DNA from: an uncultured Planctomycetales bacterium
GTDB lineage: Bacteria > Omnitrophota > Gorgyraeia > Zapsychrales > Zapsychraceae
Assembly: GCA_964535935.1 (NCBI GenBank)
Contig: CAZHWM010000020.1
Span: 1,210-65,209, forward strand
DNA: 64,000 bases
Direction of reading: 5' to 3'
The notes beneath the pieces are model-generated. The model was given only the letters and a program-made list of their open reading frames with translations, had not been told where the DNA came from and searched no databases. The translations under genes were made by a program, and so were the position numbers. This document shows positions 5,290 to 33,398 of the stretch, in pieces. The first letter of the stretch is position 1. Each line of letters opens with the position of its first letter.

Positions 5290-5400
5290 ACCCTTTTGTT
5301 TACTCTTATAAAATCATAAAAATTTTTGACAAAATCAACTATACCGGTACTACTAAATAAGTAGTATAAATTTTAAGACAGCGGTTATTTACCTCTCTGT

Positions 5401-5428
5401 AAAAAAACCCCTGCCCCAAAGCAGAGCG
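5401..5428 (-). terminator. candidate rho-independent terminator (minus strand)
   Basis: The minus strand reads CGCTCTGC-TTTGGG-GCAGGGG followed by TTTTTTT. This gives a 6-bp stem with one G-U pair plus a U7 tail. Confidence 0.4.
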
Positions 5429-5830
5429 TTAAAACATAATAGCATACATAAACTGACAAACCAACCGACACATATTTTACAGGATGTTTCTCTAAGTAAG
5501 CAGAACATGTATAAATTGAGCTGAACCACAAAAATATCCACCTTAAAAGCCTAAAAAACTATATACGCCATCTTTTCATACCAAAATTTATTCTCTATAA
5601 GTAAAAGGATTGTACTACAAATATACTCTTAAATAAGAATTTTTTTAAATATCTTATTTTGATAAGTTGTCTTACTATATATAGATAAAAAATATATACA
5701 ACAAATGGTATTGAAACATCCCATAGAAAAGGATTTATCATTGGCCGAAAAATAAAAAAACATCTTCTTATAAAATCATGGATAACATAACATCCTATAG
5801 TTAATTTCGCAACCTCAGAGATATAAGTAG

Positions 5831-5863
5831 TGCACAAATCAACCTTGTTAAATTGTGCAGAAT
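5831..5863. repeat. 33-bp structured intergenic repeat, copy A
   Basis: TGCACAAATCAAC-CTT-GTTAAATTGTGCAGAAT. The same unit recurs at 14592-14656 and 31962-32032. Confidence 0.75.
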
Positions 5864-5951
5864 GTATTTTTTGAGATTCTTCGCATGCCTGCAGCATACC
5901 CAAAATGACAAACAAGGAAACAGTTGTCTTCCCTTCCCCTCCTTCTTCCTC

Positions 5952-6140
5952 TTACCCGTTGTCCTGAAAAGCTGATGGGACGTATGTTAGCTTTATCCAT
6001 AAACTCTTGGTGGGGGAAAATCGCTCAATTTCATAAAATCCCATTTCAATAAGGTTATGGATAGTTTCAACGTCAGCTTGCATCCTATGAATGCCGCTGA
6101 ATATAGTTTGATGCTTTTGGCCACAGGCAAAGATTCTATG
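5952..6140 (-). pseudogene. possible orphan coding remnant (family and even strand uncertain)
   Basis: This stretch is locally GC-richer. The minus frame is open for 62 codons without a start codon or RBS, ending ...HRMQADVETIHNLIEMGFYEIERFSPTKSLWIKLTYVPSAFQDNG*. Short open frames also exist on the plus strand. Confidence 0.2.
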
Positions 6141-6307
6141 CTAATCCAACGCCAATAATCACTATGGTAAACGTTATGAATATTGTTGAGTTCAAATTCA
6201 TGACATCATTTCCAAAATATTCGATATAAAAACTTGACAAAAATAAGTTTTATATAATAGAATCTTTATAAAAATGAAAACCATTTGCAATAAAGAAGGA
6301 GGGTCGT

Positions 6308-6487
6308 ATGCCAGATAGAGACGGTACTGGTCCAAGAAACATAAGTGGGAATAAAATGGGCAATAAATTAGGTCCGGGTGGAGAATGTGTATGTTTAAAC
6401 TGCGGAGAAAGAATACCTCATCAACAAGGGGTTCCATGCAATACAATTAATTGTCCCAAATGCGGGAATAAAATGACAAGGGCATAA
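6308..6487 (+). CDS. small DUF5320-like zinc-ribbon protein (59 aa, below ORF-track cutoff)
   Basis: A GGAGGG RBS lies 5 nt before the ATG. The translation is MPDRDGTGPRNISGNKMGNKLGPGGECVCLNCGERIPHQQGVPCNTINCPKCGNKMTRA. It has the N-terminal MP-x-RDGTGP motif and a CxCxxC...CxxxxCxxC cysteine pattern. It sits directly upstream of an Mrp-type ATPase, as is typical for this family. Confidence 0.7.
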   Translation: MPDRDGTGPRNISGNKMGNKLGPGGECVCLNCGERIPHQQGVPCNTINCPKCGNKMTRA

Positions 6488-6526
6488 TACAAGAAGCATA
6501 CACTCTTTATATTTTATTAAAAAACC

Positions 6527-6554
6527 TTGCCTCATTTTAGACAATGCGTATAAT
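6527..6554 (+). promoter_or_regulatory. candidate sigma70-type promoter for the mrp/radical-SAM genes
   Basis: TTGCCT, 16-nt spacer, TATAAT, about 75 nt upstream of the ATG at 6629. Confidence 0.4.
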
Positions 6555-6628
6555 AACCTTTTTCTTCTAAAAATCCATCTACTTTAAAAAAGATTACTTA
6601 AAAATATAACTGGGAGGAATGTTATTCT

Positions 6629-8276: not shown

Positions 8277-9419
8277 TCAATTACATAATTTTTCATATAC
8301 TTTTATAGTCTGAGAGGCAATATTCTCCCAATCAAATCTCTTTCTTACAAAATCAATCTGCTGTAGTCTTTGCTCCTCTGAAAAAGGAAACTGAACTGCA
8401 TAATGAAGTCTTTCACAGATTGCCTTAACATCACCAGGTCTAAAATAACTGTTGCTGTCAAGTTTTACCTCGCGATTGGCAGGGATATCTGAAACCATAC
8501 ATGGCAAACCATAACTCATTGCCTCAAGGAGCGCTATTGGCAGACCTTCGTAATATGAAGGCATTACAAATGTATGGGCATTATAATATAATTCATCAAG
8601 CGCATCTCTTTTAAGTCTCCCTGTAAGGATAACCTCTTTTATCTGGGCTGCTTTCTTCTTTATAGATAGACTATAACTATCCTCATGATCTGATTCACCT
8701 ACAATTACAAGTTTAAAATCACCATATCCATTGCTATGATTATCCCTTTTAAATAAACTAAACGCCTCAATCAAATCAATAAATCCTTTCTCAGGGACAA
8801 ATCTGCCAACGGCTATAAAATATCGATTTTTTTCAAGACCAAATCTCTTAAGAAGGCCTTTTTGTGTTGTATGGCCTGCTATGACAACCCCATTAGGTAT
8901 AACAACAGACTCCCTGCCAAATTTATCTCTAATATTATCGGCTATAGTCTTGGATATACAAATAATTTTATTGGCATATCTACATGCGCACATCTCCCCA
9001 ATTTTAAGAAAAATTTTAGCAACTCTATTCCACTTCTTACGCATATAATCAGGGCCATGATGGGTAACTACCACCTTTAACCCTAATAACCTAGCTAATG
9101 GCACACATAATGATGGTCCTATAGCATGTATATGTAAGATGTCACATCCTATTCTTTTAGTAAACCATATACCTTTAAAAGTGTGAATTATCGCTTCTAA
9201 AAACTTATTTTTAGGACAAGACAACGGAACCAGTTTGACTTTATTATATGCTGTTATAGATGTATCCACATAATTACACCGCGTTAACACTGTTACATCC
9301 CAACCATGCTTTACTATAATAGGATAAAGATTCTCACAATGAGATTCCACTCCTCCTTGAACACCGGGGAAACCTCTAGTACCCAAAACAACTATCTTTG
9401 GTAAAAAGTCTTTGTTCAT
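8277..9419 (-). CDS. glycosyltransferase, GT4/group 1
   Basis: 380 aa with E-x7-E context PSYYEGLPIALLEAMSYGLPCMVSD and N-terminal GTRGFPGVQGGVESH. Its start forms an ATGA overlap with the upstream radical SAM gene. Confidence 0.85.
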   Translation of the reverse strand: MNKDFLPKIVVLGTRGFPGVQGGVESHCENLYPIIVKHGWDVTVLTRCNYVDTSITAYNKVKLVPLSCPKNKFLEAIIHTFKGIWFTKRIGCDILHIHAIGPSLCVPLARLLGLKVVVTHHGPDYMRKKWNRVAKIFLKIGEMCACRYANKIICISKTIADNIRDKFGRESVVIPNGVVIAGHTTQKGLLKRFGLEKNRYFIAVGRFVPEKGFIDLIEAFSLFKRDNHSNGYGDFKLVIVGESDHEDSYSLSIKKKAAQIKEVILTGRLKRDALDELYYNAHTFVMPSYYEGLPIALLEAMSYGLPCMVSDIPANREVKLDSNSYFRPGDVKAICERLHYAVQFPFSEEQRLQQIDFVRKRFDWENIASQTIKVYEKLCN

Positions 9420-10381
9420 TTACGGGGCCTCAACTTTTGGTTTATTACCCATATAATAGGCTTCAAAGGATGATGCCATATGGCTGGTGCAGCGCTACCT
9501 ATCATCCAACAATTTTTCGTACAATTTTTTACCATATTTCTTACTTCATCTGCCCTCTTGCTATACCAGATCTCCTCCCATGATTGTTCCTTCAAATTAC
9601 CCATAGGCTGTTTTTCATCCATCCCATTACACGGCAGCACATCCCCCCAAGGATCGAGGAAGAAACCGTTTCTCCCCATCTCACATGGTAAAAGTCGTTT
9701 ATTGCCTTGAATATAATTAATTAACCCATAATTAAAATAAGCACGAAACCAATCTTTAATCCTCCTCGACCTTAACAACCGTGAAATTAATTTCTCAAAT
9801 TCTGCAATAACCATTGCTTTATCTTGGATAGCATTATCCCATTTATGAAAATAATGTGAATTATGTAAAGTAGCTGTAGCAAACTCATATCCTAAGGCCT
9901 CAGACAGATCATATAAATATACCAAATCCTTCGCATTCATATCCTGAACAGTTATGCCAAATCCTATATCCTTAATACCCATCTCTCTAAGTTTCAACAA
10001 GGTGCGTATTATCCTATCAAATCCATCCGGAATCCCTCTTATAGTATCGTTGGTCTTCTGCAAACCTTCTATACTAATACGTATACCCAGATCAGGATAT
10101 ATTCTACATAAATCAATAATCCTATCAGTAAAATATCCATTAGTACTAATAACTATTCGTTTCGTTTTCTTTCTTAATAAACCAACTATATCTGGTAAAT
10201 CACTACGTACAAAGGGCTCCCCCCCTGTAATATTTGTAAAAAACATCTCTGGCAACTTTTTAAGCACATCAAGACCTATTTCTTCTGAAGCCTTAGACGG
10301 ATAGTGCCATACATCACACATATTACATCTTGCATTACATCTGTAAGTTACAATAATAGAGGCATGTAGTTTGTTTTTCAT
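9416..10381 (-). CDS. radical SAM enzyme with C-terminal twitch/SPASM-like cysteine domain
   Basis: CNARCNMC (CX3CX2C, aa 15-22). The C-terminus has CEMGRNGFFLDPWGDVLPC (CX12GX4C) plus CTKNC. Confidence 0.85.
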   Translation of the reverse strand: MKNKLHASIIVTYRCNARCNMCDVWHYPSKASEEIGLDVLKKLPEMFFTNITGGEPFVRSDLPDIVGLLRKKTKRIVISTNGYFTDRIIDLCRIYPDLGIRISIEGLQKTNDTIRGIPDGFDRIIRTLLKLREMGIKDIGFGITVQDMNAKDLVYLYDLSEALGYEFATATLHNSHYFHKWDNAIQDKAMVIAEFEKLISRLLRSRRIKDWFRAYFNYGLINYIQGNKRLLPCEMGRNGFFLDPWGDVLPCNGMDEKQPMGNLKEQSWEEIWYSKRADEVRNMVKNCTKNCWMIGSAAPAIWHHPLKPIIWVINQKLRPRK

Positions 10382-10451
10382 ATCTATTCTCCCCTAAGGT
10401 TTTCTGTATCCAATTTTAGCTTAAAATTTATTTAACGAATATAAATAGTCT

Positions 10452-11666
10452 TTACATACAACTATTGTATATCTTAATCAACTGGTTATAATGTTTATCC
10501 GAATTCAATTCCTCCTCTACAAATTTTCTTGCATTATGCCCAATCTCTACTCTATTGGAATGATATGATATCATTCTCTCTATCTTCTGGCTTAAATCAT
10601 CGACATTACCCGGTTCAAAACATAGCCCCCTTTCGTTATCCTTTACCAACTCTGGGATACCGCCTATACGTGCCCCTACAACTGGTTTACCCAACGCAAA
10701 TGCCTCTATAACCGTTCTTGGATTATTCTCATACCATTCAGATGGGATGACCAAAAACATAGAACTTTTTATCTCTCCATACAATTCCTCACCCTTTTTA
10801 TATCCTAAGAACTTCACATTACTAATCCCTTCGTGCTCAACCTTTCTATGCAACTCTTCTCTTATAGGCCCATCACCTATTATCTTTAAGATCACATCTT
10901 TTTTTCTTACAGCATTAATCAATGTCTCAATCCCCTTCTCATAAGAGAGGCGGCCTACATAAACAATACTATTCTCATCTGCATCAAAATGTGGTTGAAA
11001 TTTAGTGATATCAACAAAATTAAACAAAAATTCCACACGGCCCTTCAGCCCCATTTCTAATACCTTATCTCTCAAAAATTTGCTCGGAGAAATATATACT
11101 GAAATATTATCATATATCCTTAAAATATTATGATGTAAATACATCTCAATAGTATTAACAAAACTCTTGGCAAGTGAATTTTTCGTACATCTGTTGAGAA
11201 AACAATGATAATATCTCCCGCCACGACAACGCTCACATATCTTCCCTCTAACCAGCATGGTATAACAGGCACATACCATCTTATAATCATGCATAGTAAA
11301 TACTGCAGGAATCTTATATTTTTTAAACACATCTAAAACAGATGGGGAAATCTGATGGGCAAAATTGTTTAGATGAACAATATCAGGCCTAAAATCCCTA
11401 ACAATCTTTTCAACCTTATTCCTGGCCTCAAAAGAATAAAGGATATCAGCCACGCTCTTCATCTTCTGCCTTAATCCAATAGGTTTATTATAATCTATAT
11501 ATGAGACAAAATATTTTTTATATGGGTAATCTGGATTAGATGGATGATCCATCCCCCAAAAAGCAACCTTATGCCCCTTTGACAATAAAAGATTGCCAGT
11601 ATTAATAGTACTAATAGCATCCCCGCCTTTAGGATACAGGAATTTATTTATTAAAAGAACTCTCAT
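10452..11666 (-). CDS. glycosyltransferase, GT4/group 1, with Cys-rich insertion
   Basis: 404 aa with E-x7-E context PSEWYENNPRTVIEAFALGKPVVG and the insertion VCACYTMLVRGKICERCRGGRYYHCFLNRC. Confidence 0.85.
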   Translation of the reverse strand: MRVLLINKFLYPKGGDAISTINTGNLLLSKGHKVAFWGMDHPSNPDYPYKKYFVSYIDYNKPIGLRQKMKSVADILYSFEARNKVEKIVRDFRPDIVHLNNFAHQISPSVLDVFKKYKIPAVFTMHDYKMVCACYTMLVRGKICERCRGGRYYHCFLNRCTKNSLAKSFVNTIEMYLHHNILRIYDNISVYISPSKFLRDKVLEMGLKGRVEFLFNFVDITKFQPHFDADENSIVYVGRLSYEKGIETLINAVRKKDVILKIIGDGPIREELHRKVEHEGISNVKFLGYKKGEELYGEIKSSMFLVIPSEWYENNPRTVIEAFALGKPVVGARIGGIPELVKDNERGLCFEPGNVDDLSQKIERMISYHSNRVEIGHNARKFVEEELNSDKHYNQLIKIYNSCM

Positions 11667-13495: not shown

Positions 13496-13972
13496 TTAAT
13501 TAACATCAATCTTAATCTGTTTAGGTTTTGCTTCTTCTTTCTTAGGCAAAGTTAATTCTAAAACCCCATCTTTAAATACAGCTTTAACTTTAGAACCATC
13601 CACCTCACTTGGAAGACTTATACTACGGTGGAAACTACCATAAAACCTTTCTGAACGGATATAATCTTCTTCTTTTACTTCTCTCTCTTGTTTTTTCTCG
13701 CCCTTTATGGTAAGGATATTATCCTGAATCAATACCTCTATATCGTCCTTTTTTAGCCCAGGCAGATCTGCTTTTACTACAACATTATCTTTAGAATCAT
13801 AAATATCAATAGCAGGTGCCCACTGTCCGCCTAAAAGAGTAGTATCGGTTTCCCCAAGTCTTGGAAACGTCAAATCAAATAACCTATTCATTTCTCTTTG
13901 AAGATTCTCTAACTCCTGAAAAGGAGATATTACATTCCAATCTTTTGTCCTTTTAGTAGGAACATTTGCCAT
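13496..13972 (-). CDS. Hsp20/alpha-crystallin small heat-shock protein
   Basis: SPFQELENLQREMNRLFD N-terminal motif. ACD motifs NVVVKADLPGLKKDDIEVLIQDNILTIKGEK ... ERFYGSFHRSISLPSEVD ... DGVLELTLPK. The start is set at the ATG after GGAGGAGG; the track's GTG is at 13981. Confidence 0.9.
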   Translation of the reverse strand: MANVPTKRTKDWNVISPFQELENLQREMNRLFDLTFPRLGETDTTLLGGQWAPAIDIYDSKDNVVVKADLPGLKKDDIEVLIQDNILTIKGEKKQEREVKEEDYIRSERFYGSFHRSISLPSEVDGSKVKAVFKDGVLELTLPKKEEAKPKQIKIDVN

Positions 13973-14533: not shown

Positions 14534-14591
14534 TACTTATCAAAAAAAATTTTTCGATTATCGAACAAAATCTCATCTATTTTCTAACTTA

Positions 14592-14656
14592 TTTCACAAA
14601 TCAACCTTGTTAAATAGTGAAAAATGCACAAATCAACAAGGTTAAATAGTGCAGAA
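14592..14656. repeat. two tandem copies (B1, B2) of the 33-bp structured repeat
   Basis: B1 is TTCACAAATCAAC-CTT-GTTAAATAGTGAAAAAT. B2 is TGCACAAATCAAC-AAG-GTTAAATAGTGCAGAAT. Both have the same flank orientation but opposite central trinucleotides. Confidence 0.75.
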
Positions 14657-14693
14657 TACACAAATAAAGGAGAAATAAAGGAGAAATAAACTA

Positions 14694-24991: not shown

Positions 24992-26209
24992 CTAATTTTT
25001 TGTGTCTTTTTCATTTTTAGATAATATATTATACACATATTTAGGCTCTACTTTAATTGCAAGATTCATATGAGGAAACATAGCCTTAAATTTTATACGA
25101 ATAGAACGAATAATGTCATAAACCTCAGCTTCATTTGCATCTGCTTCCAGAGCTATATCAAAAATTACATTACATTTATCTCTATTCTTTCCAACTATCC
25201 TTAATTCATGAAAAGAATTAACCCTTCTATCTTCAGAAATAATTTTTGTTACTGCATTAAAAATTTCTGCATATCTAGGATGATCTTTATTTATAGGATC
25301 AATATGCACAACTACCATACCATTCATCTCTTTACTTATATCTTCCTCTATCTCCTCTGAAACCTGATGCAACTTAGATAAATCTTCTTTATCTGAAACT
25401 TCTATATGAAGAGAAATAATATTCATCTGTCCATATCTATGAAAGATAATATCATGCACCCCTAACACCTCTTTATATCTTGAAGCAAGTTTCTCCACTT
25501 TTCTTATATCTTCCTTTGAAGGGGGTTCTCCTAACAAGGGGTCAATTGCATCCTTGCCTATTTTATATGCAGAATAAAAAATAATACCTGATACAATAAT
25601 TCCTGTAATACCATCAACACGAGATACCCCCAACCTTGCCGCTATCAATGCAATAACTACCAATAAAGTAGCAACTACGTCTGTCCGGTGATGTAAAGCA
25701 TCTGCCTTCAATGTAGTTGATTCTATCATCTCTCCCAACTCACAAGAAAACCTCGATATTACCTCCTTAACCAACGCAGTAAAAAAGATAAGAATAATCA
25801 CATATATAGATACTACTATTTGTTGCGGGTGAACTACAGAATATATAGAACGTTTCATCAATTCTGTCCCAGCAAAAAATAGTAACACAGACACTATAAG
25901 TGTGGCTATAGGCTCCATCCTCTCATGCCCAAATGGATGCTCCTTATCTGCTGGTTTCTTAGCAAATCTAAAACCTAATATCACAACTATAGAAGTTACA
26001 CAATCTGATAGTGTATGCACCGCATCCGCTATCAAGGAAATACTTCCAATTGATATTCCTATTACAATTTTTATAAAAAAAAGAAGTAAATTACCAATAA
26101 TACTTACCCATCCCTCAAGATAGCCATACCCTGCTCTAACCTTAACATCATATTTTCTTTTGTAGTTTTTTATGAATCGCTTAACTATCCAATGGGTTAA
26201 TCGTCTCAT
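24992..26209 (-). CDS. cation diffusion facilitator (CDF) transporter with duplicated cytoplasmic domain
   Basis: SLIADAVHTLSDC and DALHHRTDV metal-site motifs. It is 405 aa, with two consecutive ZT_dimer-like C-terminal modules. Confidence 0.85.
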   Translation of the reverse strand: MRRLTHWIVKRFIKNYKRKYDVKVRAGYGYLEGWVSIIGNLLLFFIKIVIGISIGSISLIADAVHTLSDCVTSIVVILGFRFAKKPADKEHPFGHERMEPIATLIVSVLLFFAGTELMKRSIYSVVHPQQIVVSIYVIILIFFTALVKEVISRFSCELGEMIESTTLKADALHHRTDVVATLLVVIALIAARLGVSRVDGITGIIVSGIIFYSAYKIGKDAIDPLLGEPPSKEDIRKVEKLASRYKEVLGVHDIIFHRYGQMNIISLHIEVSDKEDLSKLHQVSEEIEEDISKEMNGMVVVHIDPINKDHPRYAEIFNAVTKIISEDRRVNSFHELRIVGKNRDKCNVIFDIALEADANEAEVYDIIRSIRIKFKAMFPHMNLAIKVEPKYVYNILSKNEKDTKN

Positions 26210-26248
26210 TTTCTACTCTTATAAGCAACAATATATAATCATTCCGCT

Positions 26249-27217
26249 TTATATTATCTCAAACGCATCTATTGCGGCCTTGTATCCTATATCAATAGCC
26301 TCATAACCACGATGAAATTCTAAAGAAGATATTTTTCGTGTATCAGGACTTATTGCCAAATCTGCCTGCTGTATATTTGATTTTGCAATTTCATACTCCA
26401 TAATATAAATTGCATTAATTATGGTATCAAATACATTTGGCATATCCAAATCAATCACAATATCTGATTTTATAAATCTGTTTTTAAATATGCCAATAAC
26501 TCTATTAAAATCCCTCAGCTTATTCTTATTTTCATGCAAAAGCCATTCTATCTTATCATTTAACGCCTTAGAAGAGGCATGATACTTCCATCTTGAAGTA
26601 GGCTTATGGAGCATATGTTTAGGAAGTGGACGTCTTTCACGTAAACTATGTATAACATTACATGCGATAACAAAGTCTGCTCCCATATCCCTCACTACTG
26701 AAACAGGCACAGGAATAACTATCCCCCCATCTACTAAAAAACGATCTCCCATTTTTACTGGAGTAAATATAGCAGGTATAGAGATACTTGCCCTTACCGC
26801 CTCTATAACAGAACCCTCTCGTATTACAACTTCATCTCCTGTGTTAATATCCGTAGCGACAACAGCCAATGGTATCTTTAAGTCTTTAAATTTAACATCT
26901 CCTATAATAGTTTTCAACAATTCTTTTACTTTATGCCCATGGATAAATCCCTTAAACATAAACGCCAAGTTAGGATCCGCTAATTTAATAAGTTGCATCC
27001 AGTCAGTTCTAAGGGCTAACTCCTCCAATTCTGATATATCACCTTTCCTAGCAAAACAAGCACCTACCAATGCCCCCATACTTGAACCACTGATTAAATT
27101 TATACGTATGCCCTTATCCTGTAATGCCTTCAATACTCCTATATGGGCCAACCCTCTAGCAGATCCACTACCCAAGGCAAGTCCAACATTATTTGCTTCC
27201 GACAAAATTGCAGTCAT
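26249..27217 (-). CDS. patatin-like phospholipase
   Basis: GSGSARG oxyanion motif, GSSMG nucleophile elbow (GxSxG) and a VDGG catalytic Asp motif. Confidence 0.85.
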   Translation of the reverse strand: MTAILSEANNVGLALGSGSARGLAHIGVLKALQDKGIRINLISGSSMGALVGACFARKGDISELEELALRTDWMQLIKLADPNLAFMFKGFIHGHKVKELLKTIIGDVKFKDLKIPLAVVATDINTGDEVVIREGSVIEAVRASISIPAIFTPVKMGDRFLVDGGIVIPVPVSVVRDMGADFVIACNVIHSLRERRPLPKHMLHKPTSRWKYHASSKALNDKIEWLLHENKNKLRDFNRVIGIFKNRFIKSDIVIDLDMPNVFDTIINAIYIMEYEIAKSNIQQADLAISPDTRKISSLEFHRGYEAIDIGYKAAIDAFEII

Positions 27218-27435
27218 CTTTTATCCTTTAACAAAAATCATTTCTATAAATAATATACCTAAACTTGACTAAGACTCAATATAAATTAAATATAAAATAT
27301 CCTAAGAAATATATTTAATGAAGCTTTAAACTTAGTGATAATTTTTATAATAAAGATAAAATATTATAAAGAGATATCGTATCAACCCATATAAATACAT
27401 GTCAACAAATTTTTAAACTAAACCAAGAAACAATC

Positions 27436-28860
27436 TCAATAAATAGAACTGGTATCGGCAAGAGAGATAAGGCGTGTCTTACGAAGTCGAGCAGCAAGCT
27501 CATGTGCAATTCTACTTATATCTCCTGCACCCATAGCAAGCACTATATCCCCCTCTCTTGTAATCTCAGAAAGGACATCCACAATAGTCTCTTTTGGGAT
27601 ATAACAAGAGTTTCTACCAGTAAGCATCCGTATCTTTTCATTTAAAGCCTTTGCGGTTACGCCATCTATACATGGTTCGCTTGCTGCATATACATCCGTG
27701 ACAATGGGATAATCACTTGCACCTAAACTTTTAGCAAATTCCTCCATAAGAAAATTAAGCCGAGAATATCTATGTGGCTCAAAAACTGTAATAAGACGAC
27801 CCTTTTTAACACGTCTGGCCGTCTGTATGGTCATATCTATTTCTGTAGGATGATGTGCATAATCATCTATCACCATTATCCCTGCGCAATCTAATAAAAT
27901 CTGGAAACGCCGCCCTACTCCTTGATACATAGCCAATGCCTTTGCTATAGCATTAAAATCCACAGACAATTGACTACAAAGACCAACTGCCGCCATTGCA
28001 TTAACCACATTATGCATACCCGGGATATTCAGTTTAATATGCCCCAAACGTTCTCGTCTAAAAAAGCAATCAAATTCAGAAGAAAAATCATTAAACACAA
28101 TATCTTTTGCATAAAAATCTGCTTTATCATCCAGCCCATATGTCTTATAATTCCGCCCGCTTTGCTCCAAAAGAGAGATTAGCCTCTCATCAGAAGCACA
28201 TGCAAAAATAATCCCAATTTCCTTGGTCATAGATATAAACTTACGATATGAAGAAAGAATATTTTGCCAACTTTTATAATAATCTATATGTTCAAAATCA
28301 ATATTTGTAATAACAGAAAACATAGGAGAAAAATATAAAAACGACCCGTCACTCTCATCTAACTCAGCGACAAAATACCTACCAGTTCCCTGAAATGCAT
28401 TAGAGGGAACACCATTTACAACTCCCCCAATAGCAGAACTCGGACTAAATCCAGCATAAGACAATATACGTTCTATCATAGCTGCTGTGGTAGTCTTGCC
28501 ATGTGCGCCTGCAACAGTTATACCCTCATAACCTTTCATTAACTCTGCTAACATCTGTGCACGCTTCAAAACAGGTATATTTTCTCTCCTTGCGGCTGCA
28601 AGCTCAGGATTAGCCTCTGTAACCGCCGCAGAAAAAATTACAACATCGGCACCAAATATATTACTTGCATGATGACCTTTAAATATATGAGCGCCTTTCT
28701 GTTTCAATCTTGCAGTAACCTTATTTTCAACCACATCAGAACCACTTACTCTACCCCCCCTAGCAATCAACAATTCTGCAATCGCCCCCATTCCTATACC
28801 ACCTATACCTATCAAATGATAGTGTTTACCTTTTTTAATAATGTTATCTCGCGTATCCAT
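27436..28860 (-). CDS. murC: UDP-N-acetylmuramate--L-alanine ligase
   Basis: HLIGIGGIGMGAIAELL N-terminal Rossmann motif, GAHGKTTT P-loop, Mur ligase middle and C-terminal domains, in dcw context. Confidence 0.95.
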   Translation of the reverse strand: MDTRDNIIKKGKHYHLIGIGGIGMGAIAELLIARGGRVSGSDVVENKVTARLKQKGAHIFKGHHASNIFGADVVIFSAAVTEANPELAAARRENIPVLKRAQMLAELMKGYEGITVAGAHGKTTTAAMIERILSYAGFSPSSAIGGVVNGVPSNAFQGTGRYFVAELDESDGSFLYFSPMFSVITNIDFEHIDYYKSWQNILSSYRKFISMTKEIGIIFACASDERLISLLEQSGRNYKTYGLDDKADFYAKDIVFNDFSSEFDCFFRRERLGHIKLNIPGMHNVVNAMAAVGLCSQLSVDFNAIAKALAMYQGVGRRFQILLDCAGIMVIDDYAHHPTEIDMTIQTARRVKKGRLITVFEPHRYSRLNFLMEEFAKSLGASDYPIVTDVYAASEPCIDGVTAKALNEKIRMLTGRNSCYIPKETIVDVLSEITREGDIVLAMGAGDISRIAHELAARLRKTRLISLADTSSIY

Positions 28861-28890
28861 ATCAAAATCAAAAAATAATTATAATTTTAA

Positions 28891-29673
28891 TTAATATTCA
28901 TTACTTTTAACATAATTAATCCATGCCTCATTCAATCTCCGAAGGCTATTATATTTACCATACACCTCTTTTAAAGCCTGTTCAAAAGGAATTCCATTTT
29001 TTAATTTTTGACACAACCTTACAAAACGATATCTTCCAAATTTCTTAATCATAAAATTAATAAAACTAGCAGATTCAGAATAAAATATCTGCAACATTTC
29101 TTTCGATGTATCCTTTCCTAATCTAACATAATTCAGTTTATCTATAGGGATAAAACTCCCGCCTTTCATTGCCTCCCTAACTATTCTATTAGCTCCCCAT
29201 CGTCTTGCCTTTTCCTGATGCATTGCAACCCCTTCCTCAAACCAAACAGGCACTTTAGCATGAAATCCTATAAATTCTCGAAATATAATATGCCCAAGTT
29301 CATGAGGTAAGGTAGAATCAAAAAAACCATAGGCCAAGGGAAATGTTCGAATAGTCTTGGTCCTTGCAGAAACCACCCCATTAGACCAATCTGCATATTT
29401 ACCTGACCGCATATAATCCTGATGGTCATCATATATATAAATTTTAGCACGCTTATCAAAACTCCATGTATCATACCTAACAAATCCTAAATTGCGAGTT
29501 ATATTATCATAATAATCTTCAGCGGATTCTTCGACAGCTGTAACAAAATCGCGCGGAGCAGACTTATAAAAAATTATAAAATGCCTACTTCTATCTTTCT
29601 TCCATGTTTCTGCATAGGCAAATACACATACAAAAAAAATAAAAAAGGTTGCTGTAATATATCTTATCCTCAT
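28891..29673 (-). CDS. secreted gluzincin-type metallopeptidase (peptidase-MA-like)
   Basis: Signal-peptide-like N-terminus (...CVFAYAE), HELGH zinc motif followed by WFEEG. It lies 1 nt after the murG stop codon and 30 nt before the murC start. Confidence 0.6.
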   Translation of the reverse strand: MRIRYITATFFIFFVCVFAYAETWKKDRSRHFIIFYKSAPRDFVTAVEESAEDYYDNITRNLGFVRYDTWSFDKRAKIYIYDDHQDYMRSGKYADWSNGVVSARTKTIRTFPLAYGFFDSTLPHELGHIIFREFIGFHAKVPVWFEEGVAMHQEKARRWGANRIVREAMKGGSFIPIDKLNYVRLGKDTSKEMLQIFYSESASFINFMIKKFGRYRFVRLCQKLKNGIPFEQALKEVYGKYNSLRRLNEAWINYVKSNEY

Positions 29674-30853: not shown

Positions 30854-31948
30854 TTATCTATATAATTCCTCTGTACGGGATATATTCAACAACAATCCTA
30901 CAGAAATCATATTAAATATCAACGCAGAGCCTCCATAACTTATAAAAGGAAGGGGTAACCCTTTTGTGGGTAAGGCCCCTATACTGACCCCAATATTGAC
31001 AAGTGCCTGCATCCCCAACATTACAACAATCCCTACACTCAAAAAATATCCGAATGGATCCAATGTCCTTTTTGCTATCCTCGCCCCCTGCCATATGAAA
31101 GCTATAAATAAAAAAATAACTACAAGCGTCCCAACTAGACCCGTTTCCTCCCCAATAATCGACAATATAAAATCTGTATGAGCAGCTGGTAAATAAAAAA
31201 GTTTTTGCATACTTTTGCCCAAACCAACACCGAATATACCTCCAGAACCTAATGCTATCTGAGACTGAGATAATTGAAATCCGATACCATTACAATCTTT
31301 CCATGGATCAATAAAAGCAAGTATTCTCTGCATTCTATAAGGCACCTTTACAACTAAAAAATACAAAAACGGTGAAACTGCAACTCCTACTATAAATATA
31401 TGTTTCAACTTGGCACCTGCTATAAACAACATAACCAAACTAATACAAGCGACAAGTACCGCATTCCCCAAATCCGGCTGTTTGACAATTAATACACTAA
31501 TAATTCCCATAATTATTATAACCGGCAAAAACCCCTCAAAAAAATTCCCTACCCTATTTTGCTTTCTTGCAAGAAAATCAGATATATAAATCATAAGCGC
31601 CAATTTTGCAAACTCAGACGGCTGAAAACTAAAAAATCCTATCTTAAACCACCGTCGTGCACCAGAACTTGCCTTTCCTATATGCGGGATAAGCACTAAT
31701 ATCAACAAAAAAATAGTAAACAAAATCAACGGCTTTGCTATATACTGCAACCTGCGGTAATCCATAGCCATAACAGCAAAAGTCAAAATAAAACCTATGC
31801 CAAGAAACAACACATGTCTTTTTAAAAAATATGCCGGATCCCCTAACTCCTGCAAAGCATAAATACCACTGGAACTAAATATCCAAATCACTCCAATAGA
31901 AATCAAACTAGAGACAATTACTGCTATTGATATACGTATCCTTCGCAT
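30854..31948 (-). CDS. ftsW: SEDS-family peptidoglycan glycosyltransferase / cell-division protein FtsW
   Basis: Polytopic protein with SEFAK, PDLG and HTDFI motifs. The start is set at MRRIRISIAV (ATG 31948, AAGGGA RBS). The 20 extra N-terminal residues in the track are translated from the intergenic repeat. Confidence 0.9.
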   Translation of the reverse strand: MRRIRISIAVIVSSLISIGVIWIFSSSGIYALQELGDPAYFLKRHVLFLGIGFILTFAVMAMDYRRLQYIAKPLILFTIFLLILVLIPHIGKASSGARRWFKIGFFSFQPSEFAKLALMIYISDFLARKQNRVGNFFEGFLPVIIIMGIISVLIVKQPDLGNAVLVACISLVMLFIAGAKLKHIFIVGVAVSPFLYFLVVKVPYRMQRILAFIDPWKDCNGIGFQLSQSQIALGSGGIFGVGLGKSMQKLFYLPAAHTDFILSIIGEETGLVGTLVVIFLFIAFIWQGARIAKRTLDPFGYFLSVGIVVMLGMQALVNIGVSIGALPTKGLPLPFISYGGSALIFNMISVGLLLNISRTEELYR

Positions 31949-31961
31949 ATATATTCCCTTA

Positions 31962-32032
31962 CTGCAAAAATCAACAAGGTTGATTTTTGCAGAATACGAA
32001 TTCTGCACTATTTAACAAGGTTGATTTTTGCA
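31962..32032. repeat. two inverted copies (C1, C2) of the 33-bp structured repeat, forming strong hairpins
   Basis: CTGCAAAAATCAAC-AAG-GTTGATTTTTGCAG forms a perfect 14-bp stem. GCAGAAT-ACGA-ATTCTGC follows. Then comes the reverse-orientation unit ATTCTGCACTATTTAACAAGGTTGATTTTTGCA. Confidence 0.8.
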
Positions 32033-32048
32033 ATATGTAAAATTTCAT

Positions 32049-33398
32049 TCAATTACTATTTACAAGTTCCTTAAAAACCCTACCACGTTCTTCAAAGTTT
32101 GAAAACATATCGAAACTAGAACACATAGGACTTAACAGGACCACATCACCTTCTTTAGCAACAGACTTGGCTTTAAATACAGCATCCTCAAAACTATCAC
32201 AAGATATAATATCAACTATTTTATTAAAAACATATTGCAATCTATCTTTTGCCTCTCCAAAAACTATCATCTTCTTAACCTTTTCTGCCACCAAAGAGGC
32301 AATTGCCCTAAACTCAGCACCTTTGTCTCGTCCCCCACAAAGCATAATAACCGGTTTATTTAAACAAGATAATGCCCAACCGGCTGATTCTGCAGTAGTA
32401 GATTTCGAATCATTAACAAACTCAACTCCATTAATACAGCCAACTAATTCCATACGATGTTCTAACCCTTGAAATTTACTAAAAACCTCATAACAAATAT
32501 CCTTATTTATCCCTAAAATCTGCCCGACCACTCTAACAGCAGAATAATTAGGATTGTTTATTACAGAATTATCTACAGTAAAATTATTGCCAGAAGAAAA
32601 AACCTTCGAAGCTATATTCGGAACATTAAAATATGTCACAGTAGCACCTATCTGAGAAGCAAGCTCTTTTATACTTCCATCTGCAAAATTTAGTACAGCA
32701 TAATCTTGTTTTTGTTGATTAAAAAAAATATTCTTTTTAGCCTCAAAATATTCTTTCATATCCTTATGTCTATCAAGATGATTTTTATAAAAATTTAAAA
32801 ATATTGATATGTACGGTCTGAACCCTCTTATAGAAAACCTATCCTGCTGTTGTTTATCTGTGACTATAGACTCCAATTGAAAAGAACTTACCTCTACAAC
32901 AAAAAAATCCCTGTCATTTTCAGTTGCATATAAAGAAAATGGTTCTCCTATATTTCCACATAAATACGAAGTATATCCGCTATTTTTAAGAAGACTATGA
33001 ATGAGCGTAGAAACCGTTGTCTTTCCACTTGTACCTGTAACCGCTATAATTGGTTTATTACAAAACTGATAGGCAAATTCTATTTCTCCTAATACAATTA
33101 TATCTCTGGAACGCGCCCATTTTACTACATCAGAAAAAATACTAACAGACGGACTCAAAATAATTATATCGCTATCCTCAATAAACTCGCGTGTGTGCCC
33201 TCCGAACTCAAAAGCAAAACAATTATTCTTAATCCATTTCATATCATCTTCTGGTATTCTACTGCTTACAGCTGCTTCTGAAACCTTCAACACGGCAGCT
33301 CTGTCTTTAGCTAACTTTAAAACTGCCATACCACTTTTTCTTGCACCAATAACCGTGACCTTTTTATTGAATAAATCCATCTCAACTGTCTTTATCAT
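32049..33398 (-). CDS. murD: UDP-N-acetylmuramoylalanine--D-glutamate ligase
   Basis: GTSGKTT P-loop and Mur ligase domains. Its start forms an ATGA overlap with the mraY stop codon. Confidence 0.95.
   Translation of the reverse strand: MIKTVEMDLFNKKVTVIGARKSGMAVLKLAKDRAAVLKVSEAAVSSRIPEDDMKWIKNNCFAFEFGGHTREFIEDSDIIILSPSVSIFSDVVKWARSRDIIVLGEIEFAYQFCNKPIIAVTGTSGKTTVSTLIHSLLKNSGYTSYLCGNIGEPFSLYATENDRDFFVVEVSSFQLESIVTDKQQQDRFSIRGFRPYISIFLNFYKNHLDRHKDMKEYFEAKKNIFFNQQKQDYAVLNFADGSIKELASQIGATVTYFNVPNIASKVFSSGNNFTVDNSVINNPNYSAVRVVGQILGINKDICYEVFSKFQGLEHRMELVGCINGVEFVNDSKSTTAESAGWALSCLNKPVIMLCGGRDKGAEFRAIASLVAEKVKKMIVFGEAKDRLQYVFNKIVDIISCDSFEDAVFKAKSVAKEGDVVLLSPMCSSFDMFSNFEERGRVFKELVNSN

Follow-up and report, generated by a model that had tools for sequence, protein, structure and literature searches.

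Within the division and cell wall (dcw) cluster of an uncultured bacterium of the Omnitrophota, the genes murD and ftsW are separated by 100 nt that are filled by repeated, hairpin-forming DNA, which raises the question of what kind of element came to reside at this junction. The locus lies on contig CAZHWM010000020.1 (assembly GCA_964535935.1), of which a stretch of 64,000 nt (positions 1,210 to 65,209), referred to as the window in the following, was analysed. A previous inspection of the window from its letters alone (the sequence-only reading) had described a structured 33-bp repeat family in the spacer and had considered an mRNA stabiliser or processing site, translational control of ftsW, a protein-binding site or the remnant of a miniature mobile element. 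According to the analysis presented here, the spacer very probably constitutes a pair of repetitive extragenic palindromes (REPs), i.e. a doublet comparable to REPINs (REP doublets forming hairpins) or bacterial interspersed mosaic elements (BIMEs), which belongs to a genome-wide family in this bacterium associated with a REP-associated tyrosine transposase (RAYT) and was most likely spread or homogenised by this enzyme. Since the palindromes are dispersed through the genome and have a REP-type transposase gene of their own, the element is a new REP/REPIN sequence family in a new phylum and thus of an established kind, not a new kind of element.

The family was delineated by scanning metagenome contigs with a 23-nt pattern, which retrieved 36 loci, nearly all of them from sample Ga0256914, in addition to VAPK01 contigs. 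In 185,579 species genomes the same pattern gave only four single hits, all in unrelated metagenome-assembled genomes (MAGs) and at chance level, so that the source species is missing from these GTDB representatives. The metagenome contigs of the source population contain at least 53 distinct sites, and a rescan of the metagenome loci distinguished 37 doublets and 14 singlets. The repeat-bearing loci resemble the window in GC content (0.32-0.36) and tetranucleotide composition (r 0.93-0.99). Moreover, 51 of the 53 sites reside outside open reading frames (ORFs) of at least 100 aa, with the two exceptions falling into unsupported short ORFs. Hence, the dispersed intergenic family anticipated by the sequence-only reading is real. 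Within the window, a 19-nt core is matched seven times compared with 0.03 expected, a count in which palindromic copies score twice and which none of 100 shuffles reached. A looser core scan of the 64 kb yields exactly five units at three sites, namely the two in the murD-ftsW spacer and the three further units that had already been pointed out elsewhere (Table 1); the doublet among the latter is flanked by a 427-aa gene and a MerR-family gene.

The usual unit of the family is a doublet of approximately 71 nt and not the 33-mer proposed at first, so that the structured repeat family holds but its unit had to be redefined. Each doublet comprises two 29-nt frames of the form TGCAC-N5-AAC-N3-GTT-N5-GTGCA, and the consensus reads (C)TATYC-TGCAC-WAWTY-AAC-NNN-GTT-RAWTW-GTGCA, followed by a 3-nt linker, the second frame and GRATA(G). 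Because the two frames carry central triplets that are reverse complements of one another (CTT/AAG or CTG/CAG), the whole doublet forms one long imperfect palindrome. Members of the CTG/CAG subfamily, with their TAA/TTA linker, fold into a hairpin of 33 bp without mismatch (-57 kcal/mol, z -15). The window copies belong to the CTT/AAG subfamily, in which the linker is TTTTT/AAAAA and the WAWTY arms are mismatched, with folding energies from -20 to -26 kcal/mol and z from -4 to -7. Across the family, hairpin energies lie between -20 and -57 kcal/mol and z between -4 and -17. A CTT unit and a CTG unit occur together on contig L035.

In an alignment of 35 doublets, the long-hairpin model leaves 88.9% of cells paired and includes 12 pairs that changed on both sides. 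The corresponding covariation amounts to 0.150 versus 0.086 in shuffles, is matched by none of 500 shuffles and lies far above all slid controls. On the contrary, treating each doublet as a pair of separate small hairpins gave a covariation below that of the corresponding shuffles, and this model was discarded. Since the copies are related by descent, the covariation supports the doublet as the evolving unit and is no proof of structural selection. A CRISPR array was likewise rejected: the units are joined by 3 nt (or by 4 nt plus flanks), with two per site at most, and hence spacers are missing.

The copy in the murD-ftsW spacer is made up of two singlets that kept their own flanks and are joined by TCGT at a spacing of 41 nt. 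The ftsW-proximal unit C1 is a perfect-palindrome variant, which on the plus strand reads CTGCAAAAATCAAC-AAG-GTTGATTTTTGCAG and forms a 14-bp stem without mismatch and a 3-nt loop. Between the left arm of the murD-proximal unit C2 and the right arm of C1 pairing is perfect, and the junction of both units corresponds to their GRAT/ATYC outer flanks placed tail to tail, thereby constituting the apical 8-bp helix of one composite hairpin. The same non-consensus base (TGCAA/TTGCA in place of TGCAC/GTGCA) recurs in three of the four arms, so that the outer 13-bp helix stays perfect. All sequences given by the sequence-only reading for C1, the linking hairpin and C2 were recovered at their positions. 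Its statement that two units fill the spacer stands as well; their 'inverted orientation', on the other hand, is ambiguous because the units are quasi-palindromes, with 87% identity when aligned as direct repeats and 78% complementarity when paired as inverted ones. Folding of the minus-strand RNA, as had been suggested, yields a single composite hairpin for 31930-32060 (-35.4 kcal/mol, z -5.0), whose base is located 12 nt past the murD stop and 1 nt ahead of the ftsW ribosome-binding site. As single-stranded DNA, the core 31955-32040 reaches -18.6 kcal/mol when the sense strand is folded and -19.2 kcal/mol for the opposite strand.

With regard to placement, ORFs of at least 100 aa are present on both sides at 31 of the 53 non-redundant sites, and all 31 of these lie between co-directional genes. 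The element is found at a median of 7 nt past the upstream stop and 23 nt ahead of the next start; in some cases a unit overlaps the final codons of a gene and at times provides its stop codon. This regularity would fit a cis-acting RNA element, selected by the host at operon junctions as stabiliser, RNase processing site or translational insulator and spread by selection for its function as RNA. The hairpins are indeed stable as RNA and filled sites are conserved in two species, and E. coli REPs situated within 15 nt of a stop codon reduce translation of the upstream gene (cited in PMC12306157). However, a co-directional context is expected anyway, since nearly all genes in the genome are co-directional, and both orientations relative to transcription occur (13 versus 7). 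In addition, the element is devoid of an Rfam match (none was obtained at gathering thresholds for the whole window, which also lacks tRNAs) as well as of a U-tract or terminator, and selection for an RNA function explains neither the flanked RAYT gene nor why outer stems changed in concert at different sites. As a primary cause it is therefore considered improbable, yet it is compatible with a RAYT-spread REP pair as a secondary, exapted role. An intrinsic terminator was rejected, given that the stems are AT-rich, no T-run follows and no terminator-like site was detected on the sense strand of the spacer; the same scan showed no promoter-like site there either.

The connection to a transposase emerges from contig VAPK010939693.1 (L026), on which six doublets occupy successive gene junctions and the gene of a Y1/HUH transposase resides between doublets (Table 1). 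Its product scores 36 bits on Pfam Y1_Tnp (cut-off 23), and REP_Tyr_transpos is its best NCBIfam model (70.8 bits, E 1e-19). The HUH histidines, the WSS motif and the catalytic tyrosine within YIHLNP vary little or not at all among 33 homologs. In a fold search with the AlphaFold (AF2) model (pLDDT 81.5), the top match is 4ER8, the E. coli REP transposase with a REP hairpin (E 6e-5, TM 0.72, root-mean-square deviation 2.3 Å), followed by IS608 and ISDra2 TnpA of the IS200/IS605 group (ranks 2-23); fold and motifs are thus RAYT-like. The 33 homologs also share a C-terminal helix-turn-helix (HTH) block, which is helical in the model and gives weak HTH_23, HTH_11 and GerE matches at residues 265-299. 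The metagenome holds two RAYT variants of 78% identity, the second of which, on contig L009, is bordered by members of the CTG/CAG-loop subfamily, whose linker is TAA and whose 33-bp hairpins are perfect. The repeat-flanked arrangement (REPtron) recurs on L026, L009 and L048, and the suggestion of a REP/BIME-like or miniature mobile element made in the sequence-only reading is thereby borne out.

A short, palindromic and dispersed element could also represent a miniature inverted-repeat transposable element or the solo end of a conventional insertion sequence (IS), either of the DDE type or of IS200/IS605 proper, or else an integron attC-like site. The latter comes to mind because GTTAAAT and ATTTAAC match the attC core consensus GTTRRRY/RYYYAAC and several sites stand in a row between successive genes of L026. 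Nevertheless, neither target-site duplications nor any conservation outside the palindrome were found, and the loci contain no DDE transposase, TnpB or integrase; the genes between the elements are of housekeeping type (secretin, histidine kinase, response regulator). The attC candidate was dropped on account of the missing integrase, these housekeeping or operon neighbours and the position of AAC/GTT, which is central in the unit, whereas attC cores lie at the stem foot. An IS200/IS605 insertion sequence was ruled out as well, since the associated protein reaches merely 16.6 bits on the IS200 model (cut-off 55), its locus is syntenic between species and no tnpB adjoins it. These alternatives are largely refuted and retain only a marginal probability.

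The conserved HTH block of the Y1 protein bears on another alternative, according to which the units are operators in double-stranded DNA for a dimeric DNA-binding protein, such as a global regulator or nucleoid-associated protein, with the Y1 protein itself acting as regulator through its HTH as one candidate. In line with this, the frame TGCAC-N5-AAC/GTT-N5-GTGCA is dyad-symmetric; its TGCAC/AAC half-site blocks do not vary, whereas the WAWTY positions are degenerate, and a lone 29-nt unit of the most frequent form makes a poor hairpin by itself. On the other hand, the sites follow stop codons within operons and are not placed at promoters, with no promoter-like sites nearby, approximately 71 nt including linker and flanks are conserved at unrelated junctions, which is far beyond usual operators, covariation extends hairpin-like across both units, and each RAYT variant is flanked by family-specific versions. 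An operator function is hence very unlikely, though slightly less so than a conventional IS or attC origin.

The history of the site points to insertion. Identical MurD is encoded in the metagenome assembly GCA_006243085.1 and two SRA-derived assemblies, and among named organisms the nearest MurD sequences, of approximately 46-54% identity, all come from Candidatus Omnitrophota; one further relative is at 88%. In three more distant Omnitrophota, murD and ftsW are separated by a 3-nt gap or overlap by 8 nt and 4 nt, respectively, and this arrangement is taken to be ancestral. It follows that the 100-nt spacer is a lineage-specific insertion. The comparison of orthologous spacers that had been proposed thus revealed an empty site in the three distant genomes and a filled one in the 88% relative, where one intact unit overlaps the murD stop, for which reason the MurD of the relative is four residues longer, and the ftsW-proximal unit is decayed. 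MAG GCA_054039975.1 contains both the 88% MurD ortholog and an 84% RAYT ortholog, the latter in the same neighbourhood of GGDEF/EAL, AAA_22, secretin, TPR protein, histidine kinase, response regulator and Y1 genes. Owing to this synteny, the RAYT appears to behave as a resident chromosomal gene and not as a hopping IS, as described for RAYTs in general (PMC5581495). Junctions near the RAYT gene are filled in both species, with CTGCAC-stem doublets in the window population versus mostly TGTCAC-stem singlets in the relative, and such differing versions at orthologous junctions imply replacement or homogenisation since the split, beyond point mutation.

Table 1. Coordinates of the repeat units, of the genes bordering the spacer and of the two transposase variants (positions refer to the window unless a contig is named).
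Feature	Position	Strand	Details
REP unit C1, ftsW-proximal	31962..31992	-	Perfect-palindrome variant; sense strand TGCAAAAATCAAC-CTT-GTTGATTTTTGCA
Junction of C1 and C2	31989..32006	-	GCAGAAT-ACGA-ATTCTGC
REP unit C2, murD-proximal	32000..32036 (33-mer 32000-32032)	-	Sense strand ATAT-TGCAAAAATCAAC-CTT-GTTAAATAGTGCA-GAAT
murD-ftsW spacer, entire	31949..32048	-	100 nt; composite long hairpin as RNA
murD, 449 aa	32049..33398	-	Stop at 32049-32051
ftsW, 364 aa	30854..31948	-	Start ATG 31948
ftsW ribosome-binding site AAGGGA	31955..31960	-	6 nt upstream of ATG 31948
Canonical doublet	14588..14662	+	Units 14593-14625 and 14625-14657; 32-nt spacing; CTT then AAG triplets; AAAAA linker
Single unit	5826..5864 (unit 5831-5863)	+	In a long non-coding stretch
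Y1/HUH transposase (RAYT), 306 aa	L026 9468-10388		Doublets at 9355-9415 and 10368-10428; gene ends inside the latter
Second RAYT variant, 78% identity	L009 82-1008		REPs at 21-49, 994-1054 and 1181-1241

Compared with known systems, the family most closely parallels the REP/BIME/REPIN elements and RAYTs of Enterobacteria and Pseudomonas (PMC3116915, PMC3337134, PMC5581495, PMC3479197), which are likewise short imperfect palindromes, dispersed and extragenic. As in REPINs, the units mostly form inverted doublets, each folding into one long hairpin; as in REPtrons, a chromosomal Y1/HUH gene is situated between copies of the same repeat and is syntenic in a related species. Furthermore, each RAYT variant has its own repeat subfamily, and repeats lie near the stop codons of upstream genes or provide them. 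The differences concern the tag, the spacing and the enzyme: most described REPs feature a GT[AG]G guide tetranucleotide that the present element lacks, the units of its doublet are 3 nt apart whereas Pseudomonas REPINs have a longer spacer, and its transposase comprises approximately 300 aa with a C-terminal HTH, compared with approximately 165 aa for E. coli TnpA-REP. The tag is likewise missing from the REPs of some described classes, namely TnpAY1 subclass 2.6 and class 3. In Opitutus terrae, a verrucomicrobial host from the Planctomycetes-Verrucomicrobia-Chlamydiae (PVC) group, GTAG-17/19 REP dimers have partners just 1-2 bp apart (PMC3733652), but these repeats are GTAG-tagged and their sequences are unrelated to the present element. 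IS200/IS605 members such as IS608 and ISDra2 have the catalytic fold in common with the RAYT, and recognition of single-stranded DNA hairpins is presumed in both; unlike them, the RAYT gene appears not to be a multicopy mobile gene, is devoid of tnpB, and the hairpins are dispersed by themselves.

A long RAYT-like Y1 protein with a C-terminal HTH is also characteristic of the TIRYT/TIRtron system (Di Nocera et al. 2013, PMC3733652) and of TnpAY1 subclass 2.1 (PMC6006769), where the HTH is of the Bac_DnaA_C, HTH_23 or HTH_28 type (PMC3733652, PMC6006769). TIRYT genes are flanked by terminal inverted repeats, some of which are self-complementary and form moderately abundant dispersed families, often as dimers (PMC3733652). 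These flanks carry a GGGGWSAS motif, in contrast to the AT-rich palindromes without GGGGWSAS found here, and subclass 2.1 has no REP-like neighbours according to Quentin et al. 2018 (PMC6006769), whereas clear dispersed palindromes flank the gene in the present case. The likeness of the protein to subclass 2.1/TIRYT is one of domain architecture only.

Several observations weigh against a RAYT-spread REP pair and have to be set beside the evidence in its favour. No RAYT-type Y1 gene is present within the 64-kb window, and the RAYT is linked to the genome of the window by the common repeat sequence, by joint occurrence in metagenome assemblies, by composition and through the related MAG, not by a single closed genome. 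Its score of 70.8 bits on REP_Tyr_transpos falls below the NCBI equivalog cut-off of 80, and in a sequence-only search of the PDB with the RAYT, alone or as profile, 4ER8 was reached only at E 0.15, which is not significant. Neither GTAG nor GTGG or CGTC is present at either end of the hairpin, where the flanks (C)TATYC...GRATA(G) are complementary to each other. Furthermore, the murD-ftsW copy is an atypical doublet because of its 41-nt spacing, covariation among copies of common descent can arise without selection, and since filled sites are conserved in both species, no clean insertion polymorphism attests to recent transposition.

By analogy with E. coli TnpA-REP and IS200/IS608 (PMC3479197, PMC6006769), the RAYT would bind the element once it has folded into a hairpin of single-stranded DNA, for instance at the replication fork, and might cut and rejoin DNA via a 5'-phosphotyrosine intermediate, by which elements could be moved, copied or replaced. 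At the murD-ftsW junction, the insertion would have ended translational coupling of the two genes and left ftsW with its own ribosome-binding site directly 3' of a hairpin of approximately -35 kcal/mol. REPs of E. coli at such positions shield upstream mRNA from 3'-5' exonucleases, as outlined in PMC6006769 and PMC12306157, and the hairpin may similarly stabilise the mRNA upstream of it. Since it begins less than 15 nt from the murD stop, it may also lower translation of murD, in analogy to the effect of E. coli REPs mentioned above. The RNA-level roles put forward by the sequence-only reading, namely mRNA stabiliser, processing site and translational control of ftsW, are plausible by this analogy. 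The element may thus alter the ratio of murD to ftsW expression, albeit as what would primarily be a selfish or commensal repeat.

The repeat also affects gene annotation around the spacer. A longer ftsW ORF of 384 aa has its start inside the repeat, and the sequence-only reading had argued that this extension is merely translated repeat and that ftsW starts at ATG 31948. The same start is indicated by the ribosome-binding site, the conserved N-terminus, public gene calls and the Pfam match: the stretch around the ribosome-binding site, GTAAGGGAATATATATG, is identical in the 88% relative, the N-terminus reads MRRIRISIA in the window and MRKIRISIA in the relative, with MR.IRISIA also in Ca. Zapsychrus, two of three public gene calls give the 364-aa form, and the FTSW_RODA_SPOVE match begins at its residue 10. 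The 364-aa form is consequently better supported than the 384-aa form. In the gene calls for L043 (a Logan assembly contig) and L044 (from the NCBI MAG of the relative), FtsW is extended by 18-20 repeat-derived residues, and these starts inside the repeat are an annotation artefact. Conversely, the repeat supplies the last codons and the stop of MurD in the relative, of a response regulator and of the RAYT itself (L044 10001-11362, L026 8620-9375 and L026 9468-10388); such genes end, for example, in ...CTNQPC, the stop being the TAA of GTTAAAT. Two ORFs in the window, 5595-5915, which overlaps the single unit, and 6198-6446, have no Pfam match, and the former is probably spurious, as had been proposed. 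They fall into a stretch of approximately 1.3 kb (5290-6628) without a supported gene, upstream of a divergently oriented ParA/NUBPL-type ATPase gene.

In the literature searched, no paper connects Omnitrophota with REP, RAYT or REPIN. The present family adds an uncultured PVC-related phylum to the range of REP/RAYT systems, as well as a transposase type that bears a C-terminal HTH, and provides a test case for whether the large, poorly understood HTH-bearing Y1 class mobilises hairpins. A broader proposal, advanced here only tentatively, holds that the family is the first REPIN-RAYT system in Omnitrophota, operated by a long HTH-bearing Y1 class similar to subclass 2.1/TIRYT, that this clade is perhaps REP-mobilising, and that the untagged, nested-palindrome doublets, set exactly between a stop codon and the following ribosome-binding site, were perhaps co-opted as intercistronic punctuation uncoupling genes such as murD and ftsW. 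The clade of long Y1 proteins, which is widespread in candidate phyla, may be REP-mobilising because homologs in Omnitrophota and Elusimicrobia are flanked by palindromes as well: on L052, from another member of the Omnitrophota, a 40-nt palindrome flanking the RAYT homolog occurs five times in 16.6 kb, and on L053, from the Elusimicrobia, 46-nt palindromes lie on either side of the homolog. As the insertion split a junction of the cell-wall and division cluster that overlaps or abuts in the three more distant Omnitrophota, it also constitutes a natural experiment on how operons tolerate REP insertion. Moreover, the repeats probably fragment metagenome assemblies of the lineage, since many repeat-bearing contigs are just 1-3 kb in length.

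Some observations on the palindromes of these homologs may be added. A palindrome on L052 at 13534-13576 (CTTAACTTCACATTTTTAACA/TGCTAAAAATGTGAAGTTAAG) resembles those flanking the RAYT homolog of L053 at 9941-9986 and 10914-10961 (CTTAACTTTACATTT...AAATGTAAAGTTAAG), and a REP type common to two phyla is possible. The RAYT homolog of L052 (5720-6637) is situated within an ATP synthase operon, where the segment 9072-9503, between the genes for the alpha and gamma subunits, contains a small GIY-YIG ORF (9148-9441) bordered by perfect 26-nt inverted repeats (TGTCATTCCCGCGAAAGCGGGAATCC), and looks like a separate mobile insertion.

Beyond the spacer, the window has 35% GC, its GC skew is strongly negative, and nearly all of its genes are carried on the minus strand. 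The dcw genes are arranged in the order mraZ-mraW-ftsL-ftsI-murE-murF-mraY-murD-ftsW-murG, followed by a Peptidase_MA_2 gene and murC (window 24992-29673; L044 13667-20039), and, as judged by synteny with the annotated relative (L044), no ddl, ftsQ, ftsA or ftsZ comes after the cluster within the window. Past murC, the same comparison indicates patatin, cation-efflux and Na/H-exchanger genes. Given the murD stop and the ftsW start (Table 1), the gap between both genes measures 100 nt, as the sequence-only reading had stated; its list of further long dcw gaps, ftsW-murG and murE-ftsI, omitted mraW-ftsL, which at 77 nt also exceeds 40 nt. The looser core scan detected no decayed repeat copies in the remaining long dcw gaps, and inspection of the ftsW-murG and murE-ftsI gaps by eye revealed none.

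Finally, a second repeat, absent from the window, adjoins some of the REPs with at least three occurrences in two species. It takes the form GATTTGACAAAAAATTGACAAAATTTTGAG...TATGACAACT, followed by GATATAAT in the two copies of the relative (L048), and is found at L026 10432-10500, at L048 8925-8990 and 12525-12600, and in the flanks of L013 119 and 867. By its sequence, this repeat looks like a sigma-70-type promoter module (TTGACA...TATAAT).

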